NCBI GenBank assembly: GCA_963736005.1
Contig: CAVTNB010000001.1
Span: forward strand, 960,001-1,024,000
Reading direction: 5' to 3'
Source of the DNA: an uncultured Pseudomonadota bacterium
Lineage (GTDB): Bacteria > Vulcanimicrobiota > Vulcanimicrobiia > Eremiobacterales > Eremiobacteraceae
DNA: 64,000 nucleotides
Below are positions 33,533-48,205 of the stretch, piece after piece; the stretch's first letter is position 1, and every line of letters begins with the position of its first letter. The notes under the pieces are model-generated. The model did not search any database and was not told the DNA's origin. It saw only the letters and a list, made by a program, of their open reading frames with translations. The position numbers were made by a program, and so were the translations under genes.

Positions 33533-34924
33533 TTACGAAGAAGGCTCGCCCAGCAGCTGACGTAGCTGCGTGCGCCGGTAGTCAAAGACCGTTTGCAGAT
33601 CACGGCGCACCATCGGTAAAGCCACATTACTCAGTGGCGCCAAACCCAAAGCATAATCAACTGAATCCCGAACGCTGACTTCTTTTCCCTCAAGCGCGAA
33701 CTCATGCCGATGCCGCCATGCGCGGTAAGGACCGCGCACCGCAATGTCCTCGAATGCCTCTTCCGGCTTCCATTTTGTGATCAGCGTCTTCCATCGTACT
33801 GGGAAGCCTTTGACGTTCATATTGTATTCAATAACTGCGCCGCGTTGCATTTCGATCGGGAGCGGCGTCAGCAGATGGAGCCGGAGTTGCGGCGGGGTGA
33901 GCGATGTTAGGTTCCCTGCGTCAGAGAAAAACGCGAAGACTTTCGATAAAGGAGCATTGACCCGCTCCGCCACTTCGAAATGCTGGAGGCCAGGAGGTCG
34001 TCCGCCGGAGGGATCGATCAAGTCGAGCAGTGTTCGATCGAGTTGTGGGTGCTTCCAGATGAAGCCCGCGTCGTCGGCGACGGCCGGCAGAACTAACTGA
34101 CTTGCGGTCAAGCTGTCGGCGAATTCTCCAAGCGCGACCTTCAACGCGAGCGCGGGCGCCGGCATCAGCGAAGGTCTCCGCATGGCGTAGCCGAGCGCTT
34201 GCGCGAAGCGGCCATTGGTTGCGGGATCTGGAGCGACCGAGTTCACGGCGCCACTGAGGTCCTCGCGATCCAAGGCGAAGAGGAAGAGCGCAACTGCGTC
34301 TTCCAGATGAATCCAGGGCCACCACTGACGGCCTGAGCCCAGCGGGCCGCCGGCGCCGAAGCGAAACGGTGGGAGCATGGCTTCGAGCGCGCCGCCTCCG
34401 CGACCGAGCACAAGACCTTGGCGCAGTCGAACGACGCGCGTGCCAAACTCTTCCGCCACTTGCGCTTCGCGCTCCCAATCGATGCAGACGTGCGCCAAAA
34501 AGTCGGTGCCTGGCACCGAACTTTCTGTTAAAGGTTCATCTTCGCGCGAGCCGTAGTAGCCGCAAGCTGATGAGCTTAAGAGAACCGGTGGTCGTTCTTG
34601 ACATTCCCACATGGCCGTGACAAGATTTCTCGTCGTAACTTCCCGCGAATCGTGGATCTTTTTTTTCTTCTCTTCGCTCCAACGACCGGCAACGGTTTCA
34701 CCGGTGAGATGGATGAGAGCGTCAAGTCCAGCGATAGCTGTGGCAATGTCAGCGATCTTCCCATACGCAAGGTCGAGCCGGCGAATGTCGACCTCTCTTG
34801 GAAAGCACTCTAAGGAGGCAGGATTGCGGACGAAGGCGCGCACAGAATCGCCCCGTTCCGCAAGTGCCGCGACGAGTGCCCGACCGATGAATCCCGAAGC
34901 TCCGGTAACGCCAACTTTCTTCAT
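33533..34924 (-). CDS. TIGR01777-family epimerase/oxidoreductase fused to an SRPBCC domain
   Basis: TGASGFIG, RWSEEKKKKIHDSR and GSGRQWWPWIHLED; C-terminal VFAFFSDAGNL...WRHRHEF. Confidence 0.92.
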   Translation of the reverse strand: MKKVGVTGASGFIGRALVAALAERGDSVRAFVRNPASLECFPREVDIRRLDLAYGKIADIATAIAGLDALIHLTGETVAGRWSEEKKKKIHDSREVTTRNLVTAMWECQERPPVLLSSSACGYYGSREDEPLTESSVPGTDFLAHVCIDWEREAQVAEEFGTRVVRLRQGLVLGRGGGALEAMLPPFRFGAGGPLGSGRQWWPWIHLEDAVALFLFALDREDLSGAVNSVAPDPATNGRFAQALGYAMRRPSLMPAPALALKVALGEFADSLTASQLVLPAVADDAGFIWKHPQLDRTLLDLIDPSGGRPPGLQHFEVAERVNAPLSKVFAFFSDAGNLTSLTPPQLRLHLLTPLPIEMQRGAVIEYNMNVKGFPVRWKTLITKWKPEEAFEDIAVRGPYRAWRHRHEFALEGKEVSVRDSVDYALGLAPLSNVALPMVRRDLQTVFDYRRTQLRQLLGEPSS

Positions 34925-34988
34925 CGTTGCTTCTCAAGGTAACGGAATCTAAAGGTCCGCTGCTCCATGTTGCGAGAAATACTCTCCC

Positions 34989-35549
34989 ATGGGCGTTCAA
35001 GTCACTCTAGCTCTTTTCTTTGCCACAAGCGCAGCGCTCGTGCAACTTGCTTCGACCGCATTTTCTCTGACAAGCGGCGCGTTTGCCAACAACCGCACCA
35101 TTCCGCAGGTGTATTCCTATATGGGAAATGGCTGCACGGGCCACAACCTGTCGCCGCCATTGTCCTGGACATCGGGTCCTGCAAATACAAAAAGTTACGC
35201 GCTGACGGTTTTCGATCCCGACGCGCGGCCGGGTGTGGGGTGGTGGCATTGGGTGGTCTTTGACATTCCGGCAAACGTGATGAAGTTGCCGGCCGGTTCC
35301 GGGGCCGGAAGCGACGCTCTCACTCCGAAGGGATCGATTCAGGGAAGAAACGACTTTCAGATCATTGGATGGGGCGGACCATGCCCGCCGCCCGGGTCGC
35401 CTCCCCATCATTACGTTTTCACGCTCTACGCGCTCGATGTTGCACAGCTGTATGGGGTCAGCACGCTCACGAGCGGGCCCACCCTGCTCAAAGCCATGGA
35501 GGGTCACATCCTCGCCAAGACGACCTTGATAGGCCGCTTCGGCAGATAG
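34989..35549 (+). CDS. YbhB/YbcL family (PEBP, Raf kinase inhibitor-like) protein
   Basis: NLSPPLSW, DPDA, WWHWVVFDIP, GGPCPPPG and HHYVFTLYALD. Confidence 0.93.
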   Translation: MGVQVTLALFFATSAALVQLASTAFSLTSGAFANNRTIPQVYSYMGNGCTGHNLSPPLSWTSGPANTKSYALTVFDPDARPGVGWWHWVVFDIPANVMKLPAGSGAGSDALTPKGSIQGRNDFQIIGWGGPCPPPGSPPHHYVFTLYALDVAQLYGVSTLTSGPTLLKAMEGHILAKTTLIGRFGR

Positions 35550-35553
35550 GATC

Positions 35554-35808
35554 CTAGCGCAGCAAACCCAGATTTGCGAACTCGGCAAGCATCCCATCGA
35601 CGTCGCCGCTGACCGTAACGCGGTCGGCCTCGCTCGCTTGGCAAATCGAATCGACGATATCCGCGGGCGTGCGCTGACCGTCGCACAGCTCGAGGATCTG
35701 ACCGGCCGTCCGGTTGAGAATGTGAACCTTTTGCGCCGAGAGGTGATACACGAGCACTTCTTCCCCAACGGTACGGATTTCGAGGTCGTCAGCTTTGCGA
35801 GGGTTCAC
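35554..35808 (-). CDS. PqqD family protein / RiPP recognition element (RRE)
   Basis: 84 aa with VHILNRTAGQILELCDGQRT...DVDGMLAEFANLGLL, a typical PqqD/RRE pattern. Confidence 0.9.
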   Translation of the reverse strand: MNPRKADDLEIRTVGEEVLVYHLSAQKVHILNRTAGQILELCDGQRTPADIVDSICQASEADRVTVSGDVDGMLAEFANLGLLR

Positions 35809-37443
35809 GTTCGTGCGACTCCTTGTTGATGGGGCGATTTTTCATCGCCCGATGTTTTCCCCATCGCGCCTGCATAGGCGAGCGCGAAGAGACCCGCGAT
35901 TGCCCGCCCAACGATGCGGCCGAACGAGCGCGCCTGCGGCTGCTCGTCGAGGCCATACCGTGGGTCGAGCAAACGCCAGGCCAGGGGACCCAGACGGCGA
36001 CCGGCGGCGTACCAGCCTTCAGTGAGCTGACAGCGCTGCGAAAAATAGAGGGGCACATCTTCACGCCGGGCGCTCCAATCAAGATACCGTCTTCCTTTTT
36101 GGGTCTGCGGCCACGCAATGCCGGCGATACGCGCCCCGAACGCCAGCGAGCCGCTGAATCGAATGGGATCGATTCGCTCCGCGGCAGCGATCTGCTGCAG
36201 CTCTTGTCTCTCGCTCTCGCCCAGTTTTGCCAGCAGGCGCGCGAGCAGCACGGAATCGCGCAAGCGGTGCAAACCTATCGAGTGCACTGCGAGGTGCAAA
36301 GCTGCTCCAGTGGCATCGAGGCACAACACATTACCGGCTGGGCCCTGCACCCATTCCGCGTGCGATCGCAACGTGTCCCAATCAAACGGAGTCGAGAGGA
36401 GTCCGGGCGGCGCAAGCGAGGTATGCAGCTCGACTGCGAATCCTGGAGTCGGCGGAAAAAGTGGGGCCGCATGATGGTGACGCGCCTTATACCGCTCGCG
36501 TAAGAGGGCATAATTTCGTTCGTCGTACCCCTGTGCGCGCAACGCTGCAACCGCATTTTCGAGCTCGGGCGCTGGAACGAGAATGTCGATATCGGAGCTC
36601 GCGTGCAGAACGAAGCCTGGTTCATCTCGGTATGAACGCGCCGCTCCTTTGAGGAGGGCGAACGGCACGTTGTGGCGCGCCAGCGTCGCCGCAATCGATT
36701 CTATCTGACCTCTCAAGGCAATCGTCAGCATCACGCCCTGCCGCACAAGAGGCTGGAGCACACGGCGAAGGTAATCGGCAGCTTCTCCTGCGGTTTGGAA
36801 CGTGCGCAGAGCTTCCACGAGTGTTGCGGAACACCCATGACGGCGAGCCACCGCAACGAGCGCCGACGGCTCGACCCGGGAGAGCGATCGCTCGAAGCCA
36901 ACGCGATCGCCCTGAACGACCGCGGCCATCGAATCGACGAGCGCAAGGTACGAGCGCTCGCGACGCCACGGAAGCGCTCTTCCAATTCGGCGTCCAGCAA
37001 GCTCGAGCTCGAAATGGCAGCGCGCGCAGAGCTCGAGTGCGGGCGTAGAACGCGCCCCGCATACGAAATATCTTCGTATCGACCCTTACGGCACCCGACC
37101 GGTCGTTTTCAAACACTGCTTTCACTTTGCCGACGAGTACGTTCGGGGCGGGATACTCAGGCGACCACGGCCGGGCGTCACCACATGTTTGCAGCTTGCC
37201 ATCGCGGAGACTGGTGACGCGATGGGCAACGAGCTTCCCGTCACTTTCGAAGACAACGACGTCCCCGACGGCAATTCGTTCGGCAACCGGGGCAAGTTCG
37301 AGCACCATTGGTTCCCGCATGAGCGGCAACATGCTCGAGCCCTGCATGGCGAGTCTCGGGGTGCTTGCCGATCCAAGGAGCAACTTGACCGCAGCGATGG
37401 CCGTCGCTGGATTTTGGATCTTCGATTCTGGACTGAGGCTCAC
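35805..37443 (-). CDS. S24/S26-type peptidase domain fused to a nucleotidyltransferase domain; apparent frameshift near 36995
   Basis: N-terminal GSSMLP...GDVVVF...AHRV...GD; C-terminal LLKGAA, SSDIDILV and VELH; GTG start overlaps the upstream stop (GTGA). Could alternatively be two genes. Confidence 0.8.
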
Positions 37444-38393
37444 GGGCCAGCTACCGCAAACATCGGCTTCTCGCGACGAACGGTCGCAGCGATGAGGAGC
37501 GCGGTATCGTCTGGCGTTCCAAGCGTGAGCGCATAGGCGCGCGCCTGCTGCAGGAGTCCGGCAGCAGCGGCTAAGCGGTCCATTCCGGGCGCCGCTCCAG
37601 AAAAGGATGACTCGAGCAGTCGCTGGAGCGCATCGGGGCGCTCCAGCGGCTCTGCCCTGGGCGTGCGGGATTTTCCGGTAATGAAAAAGATTGACTCCAA
37701 CTTTGCGGGTTTTGGCAACGGACTTGCGCCAAAAACTTCGCAGAACTGAATGCATTCCCAATCTTTGCCCGCGTGCCCGCGCAGCGGGCGGGCCATGACG
37801 TCATCGTCTGGCACCTGTTCTGAGAGCAGCAGGTCGATACCGCCCGCGCGAACATTCATCGCTCGAGGAAATGGATAGACAAGTCCGTCCTTGAGCACGC
37901 ATCGTTCGTCCGTGTAGAGACCCATGCCGCGCCGCGCACATGCAAACGCGGTCGTCGACTTGCCACCGGTCGAAATCGCAGAAATGGCTGCGGCCGAGTT
38001 GCCAACGCTGACAGCGGCGGCATGAAATGATAGCAACGAAGGATGTATCCCAAAAAAACCGCGCCCAGTGACCGCGTCAGCGAGGAACGCCACCACGCCC
38101 GTTCCCCGCAAAACCAGAGGATATCGGAACGCCTCGCCCGGCTCGGTAAAGAAGCATGGTTCTTCGTCATCGCTCGCCACAGCGCAGCTGACAAAGTCCG
38201 GACGGCCGCTGCTCAAGAAACTGCGATAGCGCCAACGAAATGCATCGGCTTCGCCCGGCTGATTAAAATGCGCCGCGATTTTCGTGCCAAACCAATCGAC
38301 CAGCACCACCTCGCGCGCCCGATCGAGCAACGCCTGCCGCTTTGCGGCGTCGAGTTCTATGGCAATGAGGTTAGCGGCCGTTACGATGATCAC
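37440..38393 (-). CDS. HprK-related P-loop kinase (second copy)
   Basis: FHAAAV, Walker A AISTGGKST, TDE and PFPRAM; GTGA coupling to the upstream kinase. Confidence 0.82.
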   Translation of the reverse strand: MIIVTAANLIAIELDAAKRQALLDRAREVVLVDWFGTKIAAHFNQPGEADAFRWRYRSFLSSGRPDFVSCAVASDDEEPCFFTEPGEAFRYPLVLRGTGVVAFLADAVTGRGFFGIHPSLLSFHAAAVSVGNSAAAISAISTGGKSTTAFACARRGMGLYTDERCVLKDGLVYPFPRAMNVRAGGIDLLLSEQVPDDDVMARPLRGHAGKDWECIQFCEVFGASPLPKPAKLESIFFITGKSRTPRAEPLERPDALQRLLESSFSGAAPGMDRLAAAAGLLQQARAYALTLGTPDDTALLIAATVRREKPMFAVAGP

Positions 38394-39283
38394 GGCAGCA
38401 GGGCTTCGATTGCGTCGGCGCCATGCTGCGGTGTGCTCGCAACGATCCGGTAGCACGGAATGCCGGCCAACATTTCCGCCGTATCGACAAAACGCTCGAA
38501 GCCTTCGGTATGAGCGTTGAGTCGTTTCGTAAAATCGACAGCCGCAACCGCGGGTGAGACCTGCTCGGTTGTGGTGTTGGTTGAGCTCCGCTCGAGCATG
38601 AAGGCCGCTGTCAGCGGCGCAGGTTCCGCAAACACGTCCTCGCCAAACACGTCGCCGGCATCGATGTTATCCCAAACGCGATCGCCATGCTGCGTGCGCG
38701 GCACAGACGCTTCGCAGACCTGGCGCAAACGCGGATGGTGAAAGACTGAGAGCGTGCGCTCGCGGATGAGCAGCGCCCGGGGCAAGCCCGACACAAACCG
38801 ATCCGCACGGCGTATGAAGGCAAATTCGTCGCTGTAGAAACGTGCACCGCGGGTGAGGAGTTCGAGAGCGAGGGTCGTCTTGCCGATGCCCGACTGAGCA
38901 GAGATCAAGACGGCACAATTGCCGATGCGCAAGGCAGCGGCATACAGCGAGCGCCATGTCGTGTTTTGTCGAAAGCTCAAACGAATGAGCTTGCTGGAAC
39001 CGTAAAACGCTAACCGGAAGTTTGTGGTTGGTCTTTCGTCTGGAAACTCGACTGACTCGCCGTTAAAGTGCAGCCAATCGGCGCCATTGTGTGCCAGGAT
39101 CGAACCGCTGTCGCAGGTTGCGTCAAGCGGATCCGGCAACGGCACGATCGTGCGGCGATACGCCGCGCAAAAGTAGTCTAAAATTTCGGCGGCATCGCTG
39201 CGAACCACGAGCGTGCGCTCGAGTGTCGCAAATGCCTTTTGTTGCATTACGCTCGGGGACGTTGTGGCTGTGCTCGCAAGCAT
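38390..39283 (-). CDS. HprK-related P-loop kinase (first copy)
   Basis: LYAAAL, Walker A AQSGIGKTT, SDE and GLPRAL; TAAGGAAG RBS before ATG 39283. Confidence 0.82.
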   Translation of the reverse strand: MLASTATTSPSVMQQKAFATLERTLVVRSDAAEILDYFCAAYRRTIVPLPDPLDATCDSGSILAHNGADWLHFNGESVEFPDERPTTNFRLAFYGSSKLIRLSFRQNTTWRSLYAAALRIGNCAVLISAQSGIGKTTLALELLTRGARFYSDEFAFIRRADRFVSGLPRALLIRERTLSVFHHPRLRQVCEASVPRTQHGDRVWDNIDAGDVFGEDVFAEPAPLTAAFMLERSSTNTTTEQVSPAVAAVDFTKRLNAHTEGFERFVDTAEMLAGIPCYRIVASTPQHGADAIEALLP

Positions 39284-39585
39284 CGCTGCTTCCTTACCAT
39301 AGAAAAGTAGAGCGGCGCTCTCATGGCGGCCGCCCATTCCCTATGTCGCTTGCAAGAACCGAAGAAGGAATGAGAGCGCCTCATCGCGCTCGGCCAGCTT
39401 CAGACCAAGAAGATGACCTTTAATGTGTATTGTGCACCTTTTACGGCTCGGCTTCCTAATGGCGTTTTGAGGACGGTATTGGTCCAAAAGACCCTCGCAT
39501 TCGGTGAGGCCTCAGCAACTCTTCCCGCAGCGAGTGGAGCAGATGGAAAACCTCGCCGGGCATTGAGTCAATGGTAGCCGCCGCA

Positions 39586-39633
39586 ATAAGAAGGAGCGAG
39601 GGTGCGTGCCTTGGCACGCACCCTCGCTCCTTC
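39586..39633 (-). terminator. Strong hairpin/terminator downstream of the precursor peptide gene
   Basis: Perfect 21-bp inverted repeat (39590-39610 and 39613-39633), followed by TTATT on the minus strand. Confidence 0.8.
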
Positions 39634-39658
39634 GTCTGCGATCGGTTTCGACGCTGAG

Positions 39659-39766
39659 TTATCTATCCCAGGTGACGTTACTGCCGCCTTCGCACCAGTG
39701 GCCAAGAGCGGTTGCGAGAACGATGTTCGCGTCGAGCGATGCAATGATCTTCGGCGTGCTATACAT
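39659..39766 (-). CDS. Putative RiPP precursor peptide (35 aa, MYSTPKIIASLDANIVLATALGHWCEGGSNVTWDR)
   Basis: GAGGAG RBS, ATG 39766, TAA 39659; YxxP leader motif; hairpin after the stop; same strand and directly upstream of the kinase/peptidase/RRE operon. Confidence 0.8.
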   Translation of the reverse strand: MYSTPKIIASLDANIVLATALGHWCEGGSNVTWDR

Positions 39767-39973
39767 TGTGGATGTTTTCTCCTCGGAGTTTTTTGTTGTG
39801 GAACGCCTCATCGCGCCCTTCGCACGGTGTTACCCGATGCTGCATCCCTCGTTCCATGTACGCTCTTTTCTTCCCCAAGAATTTCGATTCGATGTGGTAG
39901 AGACAAAGCCTCACCCCATATGGAAATGGGCCTCGCTCCGGCGCGTTCCTGGGCCGCCGATATTGTATATGAC

Positions 39974-40690
39974 ATGACCTCGGCAAACGGGTTATCGGTT
40001 CAACACCTTACGCGGAAATTTGGAAAACTCACCGCGGTAGATGATCTTTCGTTTCACGCGGCCCGCGGATCGATTCTGGGGTTACTCGGCCCAAACGGCG
40101 CAGGAAAAACGACAACCTTGCTTTGCTTGGCCGGGTTGTTGCGCCCCGACGCGGGGACGCTCGCCCTCGACAACGCTCCTCTAGGACCAGACCGCGGACG
40201 AGCCATCGCGCTCATCCCGGAGACGCCGGAAGTCTACGCCATGCTCACCGTTTGGGAGCACTTGGTTTTTGTCGCCAAGAGTTGCAAACTGACAGGCGAT
40301 TGGGCAGTTCGCGCGACAGATTTGCTGCAGCGCTTGGACCTAAACGACCGGAGAGACACGCTCGGCGAGGCACTGTCCAAGGGCATGCGCCAAAAAACGC
40401 TCATCGCGGCGACCGTCCTTGCTGGAGCACCCGTGCTGCTCCTCGACGAGCCAATGATCGGCCTCGACCCGAAAGGACAGCGCGAGCTTCGAGGCATTTT
40501 GCAGGAGCTGCGTAATGCGGGAACCGCCATTGTTCTGAGCACGCACTTGCTCGAATCCGCCGAAGCGATCTGCGATAATGTGCTCGTTCTCAACCACGGT
40601 CAGGCCGTAATCAGCGCGCCGATTGCAGAGTTGCACTTCGGCGAATTTGGGCGAAGCTTGGAAGACGTTTTCTTGGAAGCGACGCAATGA
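39974..40690 (+). CDS. ABC transporter ATP-binding protein
   Basis: GPNGAGKTT, LSKGMRQK, LLLDEP and STH. Confidence 0.95.
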   Translation: MTSANGLSVQHLTRKFGKLTAVDDLSFHAARGSILGLLGPNGAGKTTTLLCLAGLLRPDAGTLALDNAPLGPDRGRAIALIPETPEVYAMLTVWEHLVFVAKSCKLTGDWAVRATDLLQRLDLNDRRDTLGEALSKGMRQKTLIAATVLAGAPVLLLDEPMIGLDPKGQRELRGILQELRNAGTAIVLSTHLLESAEAICDNVLVLNHGQAVISAPIAELHFGEFGRSLEDVFLEATQ

Positions 40691-42312
40691 GCGACGTCGC
40701 GGCGCTGACGTATCTCGAAGCGCGCATGGCGTTCAACCGCTTTCGCCAGGTCTTGCGCCAGCCCGGACGACTCGTCTTGTGGACGTTGTTCCTTGCGTGG
40801 CTTGGACTTTTCTTCTTCACGCGCGTCTCCCACATTTCGGGGGGACCATACGGCCTGTTGATGCCGCAGAGCGTATCGCTGTTTTACGCGTTCGTTCCGG
40901 CCGCCTATATCATGCTTTTAGGGTTTCAAATTCGCTCTGGGAGTCGACGCCCGCCAGCAACGTTCGCCTATCCGGCGGATGCTCGCTTTCTTCTTGGCTC
41001 GCGTCTTAACCACGTGCTGGTCGTTTTTTGGCTGCAACTGCGCGAGGTCGCCTTTTCCGGAAGCCGAGTGTTTCTTGGCCTTTTCTTCGTCTCGTGGAAT
41101 TTTGCCGGCAGCGCGGGGGGACTCGTGCTGGCAACCGTTGCGTTATTGTCCGCGTACATTATATCTTTCGGCGTACGCTTGCCGGTATTTTTGGCGCAGC
41201 GCCGCATGCCGGAAGTTCCATTCGGAACGTTTGGGATTGGGTTGATGTGCGCGGGCGGTCTGACACTGCTGTTTCCAATTGCCCTCGCGTTTGCCTACGG
41301 CAACGTTCACTTGGCCTTTATTTCGGCCCAAACTGCGGTGTTCGCTCCGGGATCGTGGATCGTGGAGGCGCTCGCCGGCGATCATCGCGCACTCGCAGCA
41401 CTCTTGACCCTCGCGTTCGTCATGATTATTGGCGGCTCGGTTGCGGCAAAGGACGCTTATCCCGAAATTTGGGAGGCCTCCTCGCGGCTCTATGCCCTCC
41501 GAACGCTCGTTGCAAGCGGACGAGGGCTTTGGAATCGCGAGGCGTTGCGAGGCTTGCGAGACCCAGACCGAGTTCAGTCTGGCGTCCGTCTGGAGCGCGT
41601 TGCTTCATCGTCTGGTCGGCACGCGCCGGCCGGCGCCCTTTCGCTGGTTTGGAAAGAATGGATCGGACTGCGGCGCACGCCCGGAGGTTTGAGCGGCTCG
41701 GTGCTGTGGCTCTTCGGGGCTTGCGTCCTTGGATATCTCGCGGGACTCGCCGCAACGACGCTGACTTTCTTCATCTTAGTGGGCCCGCTCTTTGCAATTG
41801 CTAACATTTTCATCGTCATCGGATCGCAGAGCACGATCAATCTGGGCATCGAGCTGCGTAAGCCAATCTGGTGGCTTGCCCGTTCTCAGTTGCGAGACCG
41901 AATTCTCACGTGGATTCTGGGCACAACCATGCGGGTCGGTCCGCCGCTTGTCGCCGGTACGATCGTGGCCGGCGTCGCCATGCATTCGTGGCTCGTTATC
42001 GCTGCGAGCGCGCCTCTGATCCTCGTGTCGCTGTTCTTGGTGCAAAGCATCGGTGTGGCGTCGTATGTCGTGCTTCCCGGGCGCAACGATCTGCGCGGAC
42101 CGGGCTTCATGCTGCGGATTTTTGTCACGTACCTTGCGCTTATGCCGCCGGCAATTGGCTGGGCGGTAGCACAGTTGCTAAGCCAAAGCGCCGCTCTCGG
42201 GCTCTTGGTTGGCCTGACGGCAGCGTATGTGGAAGGGTGGACGCTTGCGATGTTCGCCGCCTCACGCCTCGAACAAAACGCGATGGCCTACGCGGCCGCC
42301 GAACAACGCTAG
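40687..42312 (+). CDS. Putative ABC exporter permease
   Basis: Polytopic membrane protein (541 aa), ATGA-coupled to the ABC ATPase. Confidence 0.85.
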   Translation: MSDVAALTYLEARMAFNRFRQVLRQPGRLVLWTLFLAWLGLFFFTRVSHISGGPYGLLMPQSVSLFYAFVPAAYIMLLGFQIRSGSRRPPATFAYPADARFLLGSRLNHVLVVFWLQLREVAFSGSRVFLGLFFVSWNFAGSAGGLVLATVALLSAYIISFGVRLPVFLAQRRMPEVPFGTFGIGLMCAGGLTLLFPIALAFAYGNVHLAFISAQTAVFAPGSWIVEALAGDHRALAALLTLAFVMIIGGSVAAKDAYPEIWEASSRLYALRTLVASGRGLWNREALRGLRDPDRVQSGVRLERVASSSGRHAPAGALSLVWKEWIGLRRTPGGLSGSVLWLFGACVLGYLAGLAATTLTFFILVGPLFAIANIFIVIGSQSTINLGIELRKPIWWLARSQLRDRILTWILGTTMRVGPPLVAGTIVAGVAMHSWLVIAASAPLILVSLFLVQSIGVASYVVLPGRNDLRGPGFMLRIFVTYLALMPPAIGWAVAQLLSQSAALGLLVGLTAAYVEGWTLAMFAASRLEQNAMAYAAAEQR

Positions 42313-44753: not shown

Positions 44754-45740
44754 ATGCCTGCAGTGGCAATGCCGGTCGACGACGGGACCGAGGCGCGGCC
44801 GCGCACTCCAAAGCTCGAGAAGCTCCAACAGCACATTCGCGCGCTGGCCAAGCGCAAGAATGCCGTCATCATCGCGCACATCTACCAACGCCTCGAAATC
44901 CAAGAGGTTGCCGACTTCATCGGCGACAGCCTCAACTTAAGCCGCGAGGCAGCGCGCACCAAGGCGGACGTCATCGTCTTTTGCGGCGTGCACTTTATGG
45001 CGGAAACGGCCAAGCTCCTCAGCCCGAATAAACTTGTGTTGTTACCGGACATGAAGGCAGGCTGCGGTATGGCGGACATGATCACCGCCGATCAAGCCCG
45101 CGGTTTTCGCGCCCAATATCCGGGCCGGCCGCTCGTGACGTACGTCAATACGTATGCGGAGGTAAAGGCGGAGTCGGACATCTGCTGCACCTCGACCAAC
45201 GCCGCAACCGTCGTTCGCTCGCTGCCCGATAAAGAGATCTTGTTTGCGCCGGACATGTATCTCGGCGGCTGGGTGCAAAAGCGGCTTCCCGACAAAAAGA
45301 TTATCACATGGCACGGTTATTGCCCGACGCATTTCGTTATCCAACCTTCGATGGTCATCGCGCAAAAGCAAAAGCATCCGCATGCGCTCGTGCTCGCGCA
45401 CCCGGAATGTTCGCCCGAGGTACTCGAACTCGCCGATTACGTGGGCAGCACCCAAGGCATGATGGACTATGCCGGCTCCAGCGACGCGCCCGAGTTCATG
45501 ATCCTCACCGAGGCTGGACTCTTGCTGCGGCTCAAGGCGCTGTATCCTCATAAACGCTTCTACTCCATCGCGCCGTGCCCGCACTGTCCGTATATGAAGT
45601 TCGTGGAACTTGAAAAAGTTGCGGCCTGTCTGGAAAACGATCTCAATCCAATCGAAATTCCGACCGACATCATGCTGCGCGCGCGCACCAGCATCGAGCG
45701 CATGATGACTGTGTCAAACGCGGTCACGCCAGCAGACTGA
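44754..45740 (+). CDS. nadA: Quinolinate synthase
   Basis: AHIYQ, GDSLNLS, FCGVHFMAET, AGCGMAD, CCTSTNA, AHPEC and CPYMK. Confidence 0.97.
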   Translation: MPAVAMPVDDGTEARPRTPKLEKLQQHIRALAKRKNAVIIAHIYQRLEIQEVADFIGDSLNLSREAARTKADVIVFCGVHFMAETAKLLSPNKLVLLPDMKAGCGMADMITADQARGFRAQYPGRPLVTYVNTYAEVKAESDICCTSTNAATVVRSLPDKEILFAPDMYLGGWVQKRLPDKKIITWHGYCPTHFVIQPSMVIAQKQKHPHALVLAHPECSPEVLELADYVGSTQGMMDYAGSSDAPEFMILTEAGLLLRLKALYPHKRFYSIAPCPHCPYMKFVELEKVAACLENDLNPIEIPTDIMLRARTSIERMMTVSNAVTPAD

Positions 45741-45752
45741 ATTCGTACCGTC

Positions 45753-47312
45753 ATGATGCGAACCGACGTGCTTGTCATCGGATCGGGGGCCGCAGGATTG
45801 CTCCTTGCGCTGCACTGCGCCGAAAAGGGCCTGCGGGTCACCATCGTGACGAAGGGAACGATCGAGGAGTCGAACACCGCGTGGGCGCAAGGCGGCGTGG
45901 CTGCATCGCTCGATTTAGAGGAGGATTCGACTCAGGCCCACGTCGCCGATACCCTTGCGGCCGGCGCCGGTCTTTGCAACCGAGCCGCCGCTGAGATCGT
46001 GGCGGAAGAGGCGCCTAAGCGAATCGAGGAACTGCGCGCGCTTGGCGTCGCTTTCAATCTTTCGGTGACTGGCGAGCTAGCGCTCACGCGCGAGGCGGCG
46101 CACAGCCATGCACGGACGGTTTTTTCCGAAGATGCAACCGGCAAAGCGATCTCGACCACGCTTGCCCAAAGAGCGCTCCAGCATCCGAACGTGGCGGTTG
46201 TCGAGCGCGCCACCGCCATATCGCTCATCCTTGACGGCGGACGCTGCGCGGGCGCCTGGATCTTTGCAGAGACTGAGGCGGTCTCGATTGTCGCGTGTTT
46301 CGCGACGGCGCTCGCGACCGGCGGAGTCGGCCAGGTGTACGAGCGAACGACCAATCCACCGGGTGCAACTGGTGATGGACTTGCGCTGGCTATCGCGGCG
46401 GGCGCGGCGTTGGCCGACGTTGAGTTCGTCCAATTCCATCCGACCGCACTTGCCGTTGCGGGAGCGCCTGCGCTGTTGGTGTCTGAAGCGGCGCGCGGCG
46501 AGGGCGGCATTTTGGTCAACAAAGACGGACGACGGTTCTGCTTCGACGCGGATCCACGAGGGGAATTGGCGCCTCGCGACATCGTTGCTCGCGCGATTTT
46601 TCACGAAATGCAGCGAACCGGGAGTGGCGTCTGGCTCGATTTGCGCCCTATCGGATCGCCCGACTTCTTGCACAGACGGTTCCCGAATATTGCGGCTGCC
46701 TGCTCGCGTTTCGGCGTCGATATCACCACGCAACCGATCCCGGTCGGCCCAGCGGCACACTACCACATGGGTGGGGTGCTCACCGATTTGCACGGGCGGA
46801 CGACGGTTCGATCGTTGTATGCGGTTGGCGAATGCGCCTGTACGGGCTTGCATGGCGCGAATCGACTCGCCGGCAACTCACTCGCAGAGTGTTTGGTGTT
46901 CGCCTGCCGCGCGGCGGACGATATCGGCGCTGCACCGGCGGCACCCGATCCATTCGAGCTCGCTCACATACCAAAGACCGTCTTGGCCATGATGACCGTT
47001 CAACCGCTGCGCGCCTTGATGTGGAAGTCCGCGAGTGTCGAACGAGACGGACCGGAACTGGCGGCGCTGCGCCAACGACTCACTCACTGGCCCGTTTCCA
47101 TGTCACCACTCTCGCGAGCGGCGCTTGAATCCCGCGCGTTGCTCAATGCGGCTCGTTACATCGCAGGGGCAGCGCTGTACCGTGAGGAGAGCCGCGGCGC
47201 CCATTATCGCGTTGATTTTCCAGAGCGCGATGATGCTCACTGGCTGGCGCGCATCGTTTGGGTGGGCGACAGTCATAAACTCGAGCCGCTCGCCACGCCG
47301 GCGATAACTTAG
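45753..47312 (+). CDS. nadB: L-aspartate oxidase
   Basis: IGSGAAGL, AQGGVAA, QFHPT, ELAPRDIVARAI, HYHMGG, GLHGANRLA and ESRGAHYR. Confidence 0.95.
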   Translation: MMRTDVLVIGSGAAGLLLALHCAEKGLRVTIVTKGTIEESNTAWAQGGVAASLDLEEDSTQAHVADTLAAGAGLCNRAAAEIVAEEAPKRIEELRALGVAFNLSVTGELALTREAAHSHARTVFSEDATGKAISTTLAQRALQHPNVAVVERATAISLILDGGRCAGAWIFAETEAVSIVACFATALATGGVGQVYERTTNPPGATGDGLALAIAAGAALADVEFVQFHPTALAVAGAPALLVSEAARGEGGILVNKDGRRFCFDADPRGELAPRDIVARAIFHEMQRTGSGVWLDLRPIGSPDFLHRRFPNIAAACSRFGVDITTQPIPVGPAAHYHMGGVLTDLHGRTTVRSLYAVGECACTGLHGANRLAGNSLAECLVFACRAADDIGAAPAAPDPFELAHIPKTVLAMMTVQPLRALMWKSASVERDGPELAALRQRLTHWPVSMSPLSRAALESRALLNAARYIAGAALYREESRGAHYRVDFPERDDAHWLARIVWVGDSHKLEPLATPAIT

Positions 47313-47320
47313 GGCGCGGG

Positions 47321-48205
47321 ATGCGGCATCCAGCTCTCGAGCAACCATCGTTCGTTCCGATGACCGCATCAGAGGCGATCAAATTTCAGTCGATCGTTGC
47401 TGCAGCGCTCTCCGAGGACGGCGCGCTCCAGGATGTGACGTCTGAGGCGACCGTCTCACCTGATGCGCACGCTAACGCAGACGTGGTTGTTCGCGCTCCC
47501 GCGGTTGTGGCCGGGGTGCAGATTGCTGCGCTTGCCTTTCGTTCGATCGACGACCGGGTGAGCTTCAAAGCATTGGTCGAAGACGGCGTCGCGACCGATG
47601 CGCAAGCCATTGCAAGCGTCACAGGTTCGGCACGCAGCCTGCTTGCCGCCGAGCGAGTGGCGCTCAATTTTTTGGGCCGGCTGAGCGGCATCGCAACTTT
47701 GACCAGGAAGTTCGTCGACGCTGTGCGCGATCTGCCCGTGCGTATCTGCGACACCCGCAAGACGACGCCTGGGCTGCGGGCGCTCGAGCGTTATGCCGTG
47801 CGCGCTGGCGGCGGCTACAACCACCGCTTTAATTTGTCCGATGCAATCCTCATCAAAGACAATCACCTCGTGGCGGCAGGGTCTGTGGTCAAGGCAATCG
47901 ACCTAGCGCGAGCCGACGCGCCTCCCAACACAATCGTGGAAGTCGAATGCGAGTCTGCGGCGCAAGTCGAAGAAGCGCTTCAGGTCGGGGTTGACGCGAT
48001 TCTCCTTGATAACATGCCGCTGAGTGAGATGCGCCGAGCCGTCAAAATGGCGCATGGCAAGGCGGCGCTAGAAGCGTCGGGCGGCATGACGCTGGCGAAT
48101 GTGCGCGATGTCGCGCTGACCGGCGTCGACGTCATTTCCATCGGAGCGCTGACGCACAGCGCGCCGAGCGCCGACGTCGCTCTCGACTTTGGAGAACCCA
48201 AATGA
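47321..48205 (+). CDS. nadC: Nicotinate-nucleotide diphosphorylase (carboxylating)
   Basis: ERVALN, DTRKTTPGLR, HRFNLSD, IKDNH, LLDNM, EASGG and SIGALTHSA. Confidence 0.97.
   Translation: MRHPALEQPSFVPMTASEAIKFQSIVAAALSEDGALQDVTSEATVSPDAHANADVVVRAPAVVAGVQIAALAFRSIDDRVSFKALVEDGVATDAQAIASVTGSARSLLAAERVALNFLGRLSGIATLTRKFVDAVRDLPVRICDTRKTTPGLRALERYAVRAGGGYNHRFNLSDAILIKDNHLVAAGSVVKAIDLARADAPPNTIVEVECESAAQVEEALQVGVDAILLDNMPLSEMRRAVKMAHGKAALEASGGMTLANVRDVALTGVDVISIGALTHSAPSADVALDFGEPK

Follow-up and report, generated by a model that had tools for sequence, protein, structure and literature searches.

The question raised by this locus is whether a 35-codon ORF at the head of a kinase and peptidase operon encodes a peptide precursor and, if so, what the neighbouring enzymes make of it. 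The window, meaning the whole 64,000-nucleotide stretch of DNA that was analysed, carries the ORF on the minus strand (39659..39766), and its coordinates and translation, as given in an earlier note on this DNA together with a GAGGAG ribosome binding site, were all reproduced. This Shine-Dalgarno sequence (39779..39784, minus strand) lies 12 nt before the ATG. The 35-residue product consists of a conserved leader and a variable core, with Tyr2, Pro5, Ile7, Ala9, Ser10, Asp12, Leu17, Ala20 and Gly22 as the conserved leader residues. The core contains a single Cys and a single Ser (Ser29), the latter within a Gly-Ser motif. Searched against Pfam and NCBIfam, the peptide has no match at E≤0.1. 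A sigma-70 scan of positions 39200-40100 returned 0 promoter-like sites and 1 terminator-like site, which is at chance level.

The 35-codon ORF is a real gene and a member of a family of peptide precursors. A leader HMM search of the 2.84-Mb source genome identified eight paralogs at E≤3.7e-10, with the next match at E=2.3; seven copies served as seeds and the eighth was found without being one. A fixed start pattern (ATG, Tyr2, Pro5, an aliphatic residue at position 7, a length of 25-45 aa and a ribosome binding site) has nine matches in the genome, eight of which are the precursor family, and 0-2 matches in each of 10 block-shuffled genomes. Over 588 codon pairs from the eight paralog leaders, differences at codon positions 1/2/3 amount to 0.30/0.21/0.67, with third positions varying the most. 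Relative to the ortholog in genome G002, the leader has two synonymous and no non-synonymous codon changes, and the core has four synonymous and three non-synonymous changes. In a contig of a close strain from sequencing run X1, the ORF is closely bracketed by indels at 39657 and 39767, with none listed inside it. A search of sequencing runs listed no RNA dataset that contains the locus. The conserved leader, variable core and further copies that the earlier note expected are all seen here, as a 22-residue YxxP leader, hypervariable cores and eight paralogs.

The precursor heads an operon without a cyclase, and the remaining genes follow downstream on the same minus strand. The first is an HprK-like kinase of 297 aa (K1, 38390..39283), which keeps the Walker A sequence GIGKT and an Asp-Glu pair, has Tyr in place of the catalytic His and is regarded as accessory. 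Next is a second HprK-like kinase of 317 aa (K2, 37440..38393) with His124, Lys145 and Asp162-Glu163. It is followed by a fusion gene with an N-terminal archaeal-type signal peptidase (S26) domain (36998..37443) and a C-terminal NTP_transf_5 nucleotidyltransferase (NTase) domain (PF14907, 35805..36997), and by a discrete PqqD-family RiPP recognition element (RRE) of 84 aa (35554..35808). The order precursor-K1-K2-S26/NTase-(ABC)-RRE is kept in the relatives fetched, either whole or up to the end of the contig.

In the source assembly, a one-base insertion near 36998 frameshifts the S26-NTase gene. This insertion is absent from G002 (89% nucleotide identity over 699 bases), from the X1 contig and from metagenome locus L187, which encodes an identical precursor peptide and an intact fusion, and separate peptidase and NTase genes were rejected on these grounds. 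The fusion is present in 22 of the 30 genome loci with an S26 match. The break is most likely an assembly error, and a strain-specific lesion is not favoured. Apparent frameshifts also split a pqqE-like gene (C1:1901162-1902200), a radical SAM gene (C1:47398-47884) and a B2-type protease gene (C3:22412-23062) of the source genome, which is consistent with indel errors in this assembly. Stand-alone S26 domains occur in the clusters of L129, L133, L135, L137, L147, L154 and L156, several of which have no fused-type NTase in the locus; L137 has a more distant NTP_transf_5 gene 2 kb away, and one example of S26 without NTase (L117, the same as L129) rests on genome G008, which is marked unpublished.

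On the other side of the precursor, a divergent ABC ATPase and PF16962 permease pair (39974..42312, plus strand) adjoins the cluster in 10 of 96 loci, and its membership of the operon is doubtful. No exporter gene is present inside the operon of the window. In genome G003 an ABC-2 pair lies inside the operon, and its best match in the source genome (C1:2051533-2053370; ATPase 54%, permease 63%) is, on sequence similarity, probably a relocated exporter. Positions 33533-35549 hold a gene for a DUF1731 epimerase that ends in an SRPBCC-like domain, along with a YbhB/PEBP gene; both adjoin the operon in the window as well as in several close relatives, and are probably syntenic neighbours instead of pathway genes. 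Further away, positions 44754-48205 hold what we take, from sequence motifs, to be a nadA-nadB-nadC-like operon.

The linear polyphosphorylated peptide (LPP) system, lppA-K-B-S-D-N of Paenibacillus alginolyticus (Popov et al., Nat Commun 2026; PMC13381572), and the phosphorylated lasso peptides offer counterparts with which these enzymes can be compared. Of the two kinases, K2 is the one found in all clusters fetched with it. Its His124, Lys145, Asp162 and Glu163 are invariant in the K2 alignment and match the His-Lys-Asp-Asp motif given for lasso kinases in the accessible part of PMC9266682, and its model (pLDDT 90) matches the PEPCK and HprK folds. The catalytic His, which BsfK requires according to the accessible text of PMC10368454, is kept in 41 of 42 readable rows labelled K2. 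Of the 24 readable K1 rows, 20 carry Tyr at the same position, one carries Phe and three carry His (two more rows are unreadable), and K1 is missing from 12 loci where the precursor directly precedes K2. The S26 domain matches TIGR02228 with an E-value of 8e-8, below the curated cut-off. Its Ser37 and His74 are invariant in 31 rows, as is Asp89, and align by eye with S29 and H68 of LppS; the catalytic D93 of LppS aligns by eye with Pro95, and a near-invariant Glu96 lies one residue later. An S26 profile search returned 25 proteins, none of them named as a Bacillota LPP peptidase. The RRE has a PF05402 match above the cut-off and TbiB1 as its best PDB match (E 1.2e-5), and LppB is not among its PDB matches at E≤1. 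Its Asn32 and Asp69 are invariant in 29 rows and spaced like N33 and D70 of LppB, the residues that hold the YxxP motif (PMC13381572, accessible part). The NTase keeps the LKG and DxD motifs. A fold search with its model gave no PDB match at E≤0.001, and the weak best rows are polymerase-beta-like nucleotidyltransferases that do not indicate a donor. A predicted complex of S26, RRE and precursor scored 0.80, compared to 0.67 for a control in which the peptidase was replaced, and neither score is counted for or against the assignment.

The same association recurs in relatives. An 8-row leader profile found the precursor in 11 of 41 related genomes. A K2 profile search returned 65 genome loci, 44 strong and 21 weak, and 28 of the strong loci are named Vulcanimicrobiota, Eremiobacterota or WPS-2. 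Leader matches of at least 15 bits occur at 28 of the 44 strong loci, weaker ones at 4 and none at 12, several of which are on short contigs, and 0 of the 21 weak loci has a leader match; about 10 of the K2 loci also contributed rows to the profile. Recurrent neighbours at the 44 strong loci are kinases (42), S26/NTase (29), ABC-2 permease (22), ABC-2 ATPase (20) and the RRE region (22), and no cyclase, B2 protease, lyase or radical SAM gene recurs beside the cluster at these loci. Among 251 genomes of the phylum, the precursor is found in 25, S26 (E≤1e-10) in 34 and both in 23, counts to be read with the relatedness of the genomes in mind and with both profiles having been built partly from them. 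At E≤1e-20, S26 is found in 27 of these genomes, 23 with the precursor and 4 without a precursor match; the two genomes with a precursor match and no S26 have only weak precursor matches. Several of the genome counts and alignment rows include G008, G013, G254 and G256, which are marked unpublished. A library-wide search gave 104 proteins, two of them false (P0033 and P0102, dropped as repeat false positives), and P0097, which has no Tyr-Pro anchor, was also dropped. Among metagenome loci, 27 of 53 have a leader match. Homologous small ORFs, on whose presence near similar operons the earlier note had made its reading depend, do occur in relatives, at K2 loci and across the phylum genomes. No description of this Vulcanimicrobiota precursor family was found in the literature covered, a coverage that takes in few subscription journals.

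Two further arrangements were observed among the loci. Tandem precursor triplets are present at L118:6081-6781 (G001), L103:7773-8387 (G003) and L114:1950-2493 (G017). Within the G001 triplet a separate hairpin motif accompanies each copy, and both arms of its stem are altered, which points to duplication of the whole motif-RBS-ORF unit. A sub-variant (L141, L208-L213, L216 and L220, e.g. L213:4720-8300) encodes the RRE, K2 and two uncharacterised ORFs, one with a weak HEAT-repeat match and one with a His-x-His cupin-like stretch identified by eye, followed by two to three precursors whose leaders mostly end in DADG or DAEG. The same leader and K2 are present at the sub-variant loci, which have no S26 match.

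The other seven paralogs are orphans: no RRE, kinase or NTase is nearby among the matches listed when 20 flanking proteins were scanned. The 5' leader of the window's precursor contains a conserved hairpin of 6 bp whose loop reads GATGAG (39801..39818, minus strand). Four orphan paralogs and the kinase operon have this hairpin too, the second copy in the window lying upstream of K1 (39374..39391, minus strand). The 16-mer GCGCGATGAGGCGYTC occurs exactly six times in the source genome (0.04 expected), before five precursors and before K1, which ties the orphan copies to the operon; three of the eight paralogs do not have the exact 16-mer. A looser form is found upstream of 30 of the 73 precursors with DNA available, nearly all in close relatives, and two of these are probably chance occurrences. 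In 35 instances of the stem, 95% of cells are paired, 11 cells are changed on both sides and 21 are G-U or U-G; the pairing and covariation scores were reached by 0 of 500 shuffles and slid controls pair at 40-73%, with the structure having been read from the same sequences used to score the pairing. Because G-U pairs are tolerated, an RNA hairpin is favoured over a DNA operator. In a fold of the whole leader of the window's copy the hairpin bases pair differently. Rfam has no family at gathering score for positions 39250-40000, only six weak matches. A separate 20-bp hairpin behind the precursor stop codon (39590..39633, minus strand; z = -10.6) is a probable terminator or mRNA-stabilising stem. 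The shared 5' hairpin can serve as a marker for orphan precursors that gene callers miss.

Probably one enzyme set serves the seven orphans, and two other kinase/NTase clusters in the source genome (C2:35-44 kb and C3:20-24 kb) could serve some of them. The first of these (C2:35800-44700) encodes an S26-like/NTase fusion in which the peptidase Ser and His are apparently replaced, along with a kinase, glycosyltransferases, a sulfotransferase-like ORF and a B2-type protease. The second (C3:19944-24000) has an RRE with a fused lasso-leader-like tail, an HprK-like kinase, a glycosyltransferase, a B2-type protease and an NTase, and no cyclase. At C1:265295-267528, a DUF6065 gene (PF19541, E 2e-86) and a gene for a 2OG-Fe dioxygenase (PF10014) lie between two precursor paralogs, and their products are possible local tailoring enzymes for the two flanking cores.

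The cores themselves point to the residue that is modified. Ser is present in 158 of 159 unique cores (permutation mean 135, maximum 146) and in 88 of 89 non-redundant cores (mean 76.7, maximum 84), figures that overstate significance since genomes and cores are related. The 159 cores show no excess of Thr (89 vs 86 in permutations), His (69 vs 79) or Cys (117 vs 114), and 25 new metagenome precursors contain Ser in 25, Thr in 17 and His in 10. The residue before Ser is Gly or Cys in 115 cores, compared with 76 in shuffles. As Ser is nearly universal and Thr and His have no excess, Ser29 is the likely phospho-acceptor. It is the one survivor of the three acceptors listed in the earlier note: Thr32, which is Tyr in the G002 ortholog, was rejected along with His23. 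The leader was said there to end near ALG, and conservation does fall from 3.5 to 0.8 bits after Gly22, but the point of cleavage is divided about evenly between two predicted sites. Signal peptidases follow a small-residue -3,-1 rule, which is satisfied by both Ala20 (141 of 159) and Gly22 (154 of 159). At position -2 of a cut after Ala20 most members have Glu, Asp or Gln, like E-2 of LppA, and the window peptide has Thr. Ser29 would be core position 9 after a cut at Ala20 or 7 after a cut at Gly22, and the first Ser falls at core position 3 in 27 and 23 of 159 cores, respectively.

Cysteine raises the question of whether phosphoserine is the end of the pathway. Exactly two Cys are found in 40 of the 89 non-redundant cores (18.3 expected), and Ser lies between them in 64 of 81 two-Cys cores. 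This pattern, together with the conservation of K1 despite its altered active site, could be explained if phosphoserine were only an intermediate that is lost by elimination or through attack of a core Cys, yielding dehydroalanine or a thioether ring, with K1 or the NTase carrying out the second step. Such a route is improbable: Cys shows no excess in its presence and is absent from 42 of 159 cores, K1 is missing from the 12 loci mentioned above, and no lyase, cyclase or radical SAM gene recurs. The excess of exactly two Cys and the scarcity of three or more (1 core vs 9.9 expected) suggest disulfide loops, which they fit better than the intermediate. Six of the seven orphans have two Cys; the window peptide has one and so cannot close a disulfide loop alone. 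Slightly less credible again is a role inside the cell, either as phospho-signals or as leader (attenuator) peptides regulating the downstream operon without export. The ORF does sit between hairpins upstream of the kinase operon, which has no exporter of its own in the window, but seven paralogs have no such operon downstream, the leader residues match RRE recognition, and the peptidase co-occurs in 23 of 25 genomes. An ABC-2 permease is also present in 29 of 96 loci, with a 63% identical copy elsewhere in the source genome.

The YxxPxI leader, the match of the RRE to TbiB1 and the two B2-type genes in the genome would all suit a lasso precursor that a B2 protease and an asparagine-synthetase-like cyclase process in trans. 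The earlier note held that the peptide fits lasso rules poorly, and this was borne out by the family: at most 26 of 159 cores have Asp or Glu at positions 7-9 as the ring rule demands, and Thr is at -2 in 2 of 159. No cyclase recurs beside the cluster, the three PF00733 matches being on other contigs or about 88 kb away, and it is the S26 peptidase, not B2, that travels with the precursor family. The lasso reading is largely refuted and retains very little likelihood. Equally little attaches to a radical SAM (thioether) precursor, in which the Cys found in the cores would be cross-linked by an enzyme encoded elsewhere. The sole SPASM match in the genome, which is 84% complete, sits in the pqq cluster beside PqqD, and no radical SAM gene recurs in the 44 loci; this candidate was rejected.

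The reading preferred here, to which we assign a high probability on sequence grounds, takes the ORF as the precursor gene linked to the operon of an LPP-like RiPP system in Vulcanimicrobiota (Eremiobacterota). Family, operon and core statistics together support what the earlier note had outlined, a non-lasso RiPP precursor with an RRE-type YxxP leader and a core that serves as kinase or nucleotidyltransferase substrate. The neighbouring enzymes probably phosphorylate and trim the precursor. The RRE would bind the YxxPxI start of the leader, as suggested by the motif, the neighbourhood and the precedent of LppB. K2 would then add one or more phosphates to the sole core serine, probably Ser29, and may recognise it by local context, mostly Gly-Ser or Cys-Ser, instead of by a fixed position. 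For K1, which has no catalytic His, a helper role or a changed activity is probable. The S26 serine peptidase, to which the RRE would present the substrate, would cut after Ala20 or Gly22, with about even chances, to leave a linear core of 15 or 13 residues. Calculated monoisotopic masses are 3788.865 for the full-length peptide, 1715.747 for the core after Ala20 (1795.713 and 1875.680 with one and two phosphates) and 1545.642 for that after Gly22 (1625.608 and 1705.575). The fused NTase might cap the phosphoserine with a nucleotide or sugar; the natural peptidase-NTase fusion argues that the NTase acts on the peptide. Export would be by the ABC-2 transporter, whose genes are part of the operon in relatives and lie at C1:2.05 Mb in the source genome, after which the two Cys of six of the seven orphans could close a disulfide loop.

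A more far-reaching form of this scheme is offered tentatively, as a possibility that we consider rather doubtful as a whole. One operon would act in trans on eight dispersed, co-regulated precursors to produce a library of short phosphoserine peptides, most of them closed by a disulfide, with the kinase picking Ser by context, K1 as a dedicated partner (for polyphosphate extension or as a scaffold) and the fused NTase capping the phosphate on release. If true, such a trans-acting library with an NTase cap would reveal the final modification of LPP-type peptides, and a kinase that takes more than 150 different cores and tolerates a floating serine would be of use in the preparation of defined phosphopeptides. 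The cores of 13-15 residues, the one serine of the window peptide and the natural fusion make a compact test system.

The system has a precedent in the LPP family, with which it shares its enzyme set. In the accessible parts of PMC13381572, LPP is defined by an SpI peptidase, an RRE, an HprK kinase, an NTP transferase as well as an MsbA-like exporter without a cyclase, and is described as restricted to Bacillota; Eremiobacterota or Vulcanimicrobiota are not mentioned in its supplements 1, 3, 5 and 6 by term search. Ser3 of the LPP core receives one to four phosphates, cleavage is RRE-dependent and occurs after Thr-1, LppN has no activity in the published host, and the final product and the role of the NTP transferase are given as unknown. 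Both systems share an archaeal-type signal peptidase, a discrete RRE with an Asn/Asp pair for YxxP (aligned by eye), an HprK-like kinase, an NTP transferase, the absence of a cyclase, a YxxPx[V/I] leader that is conserved ahead of a variable core, and a required core serine. The leader consensus of LPP, YxxPxVLxHQxIxFETxxS (Px9Fx[T/A]), is not found here, where the family profile is YxxPx[IV][IL]A[ST][LF]D...L[GAS][ED]AxG; counted from Tyr the LPP leader has 16 residues including HQxIxFET, whereas the present one has 19 or 21 and no HQxIxFET. LppK and BsfK are strict for Ser at position 3 (PMC13381572, PMC10368454, accessible parts), whereas the serine here floats, and the LppA core of 45 aa compares with cores of 13-15 aa. 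Instead of an MsbA-type exporter, relatives encode an ABC-2 ATPase and permease, and the window's operon has neither inside it. Also different from the described LPP systems are the two kinases, of which K1 has no catalytic His, the peptidase-NTase fusion (in 22 of 30 loci), up to eight dispersed precursors per genome, the shared 5' hairpin, the frequent Cys pairs, the absence of capsular-polysaccharide genes from the recurrent neighbours, and the host, Vulcanimicrobiota in place of Bacillota.

Phosphorylated lasso peptides of the paeninodin/pseudomycoidin and Bsf types (PadeK, ThcoK, PsmK/PsmN, BsfK/BsfN) likewise use an HprK-like kinase on a precursor serine, with an RRE that aids the kinase (BsfK) and a nucleotidyltransferase gene, PsmN being linked to hexose addition on the phosphate (PMC9266682, PMC10368454, accessible parts). 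Those systems also have a B2 protease and a macrolactam cyclase, and the residue they modify is Ser3 or a Ser at the C-terminus, whereas no cyclase is present here and 17 of 159 cores end in Ser. The NCBIfam HPr-rel-A families (TIGR04352 kinase, TIGR04353 PqqD chaperone) are the best family matches of both kinases and the RRE, all below the curated cut-offs (48.6 and 37.8 vs 200 for the kinases, 32.9 vs 35 for the RRE), and no precursor model matches. Prochlorosins are lanthipeptides in which one LanM enzyme acts on many precursors with long Nif11-type leaders. Like the present family they combine a single conserved leader with numerous hypervariable cores, some of them distant from the maturase, and they have no enzymes in common with it. 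Because the leader consensus, Ser3 and the exporter type all differ, the system is an LPP-like variant rather than a member of LPP, and it extends the LPP enzyme logic to a largely uncultured soil phylum.
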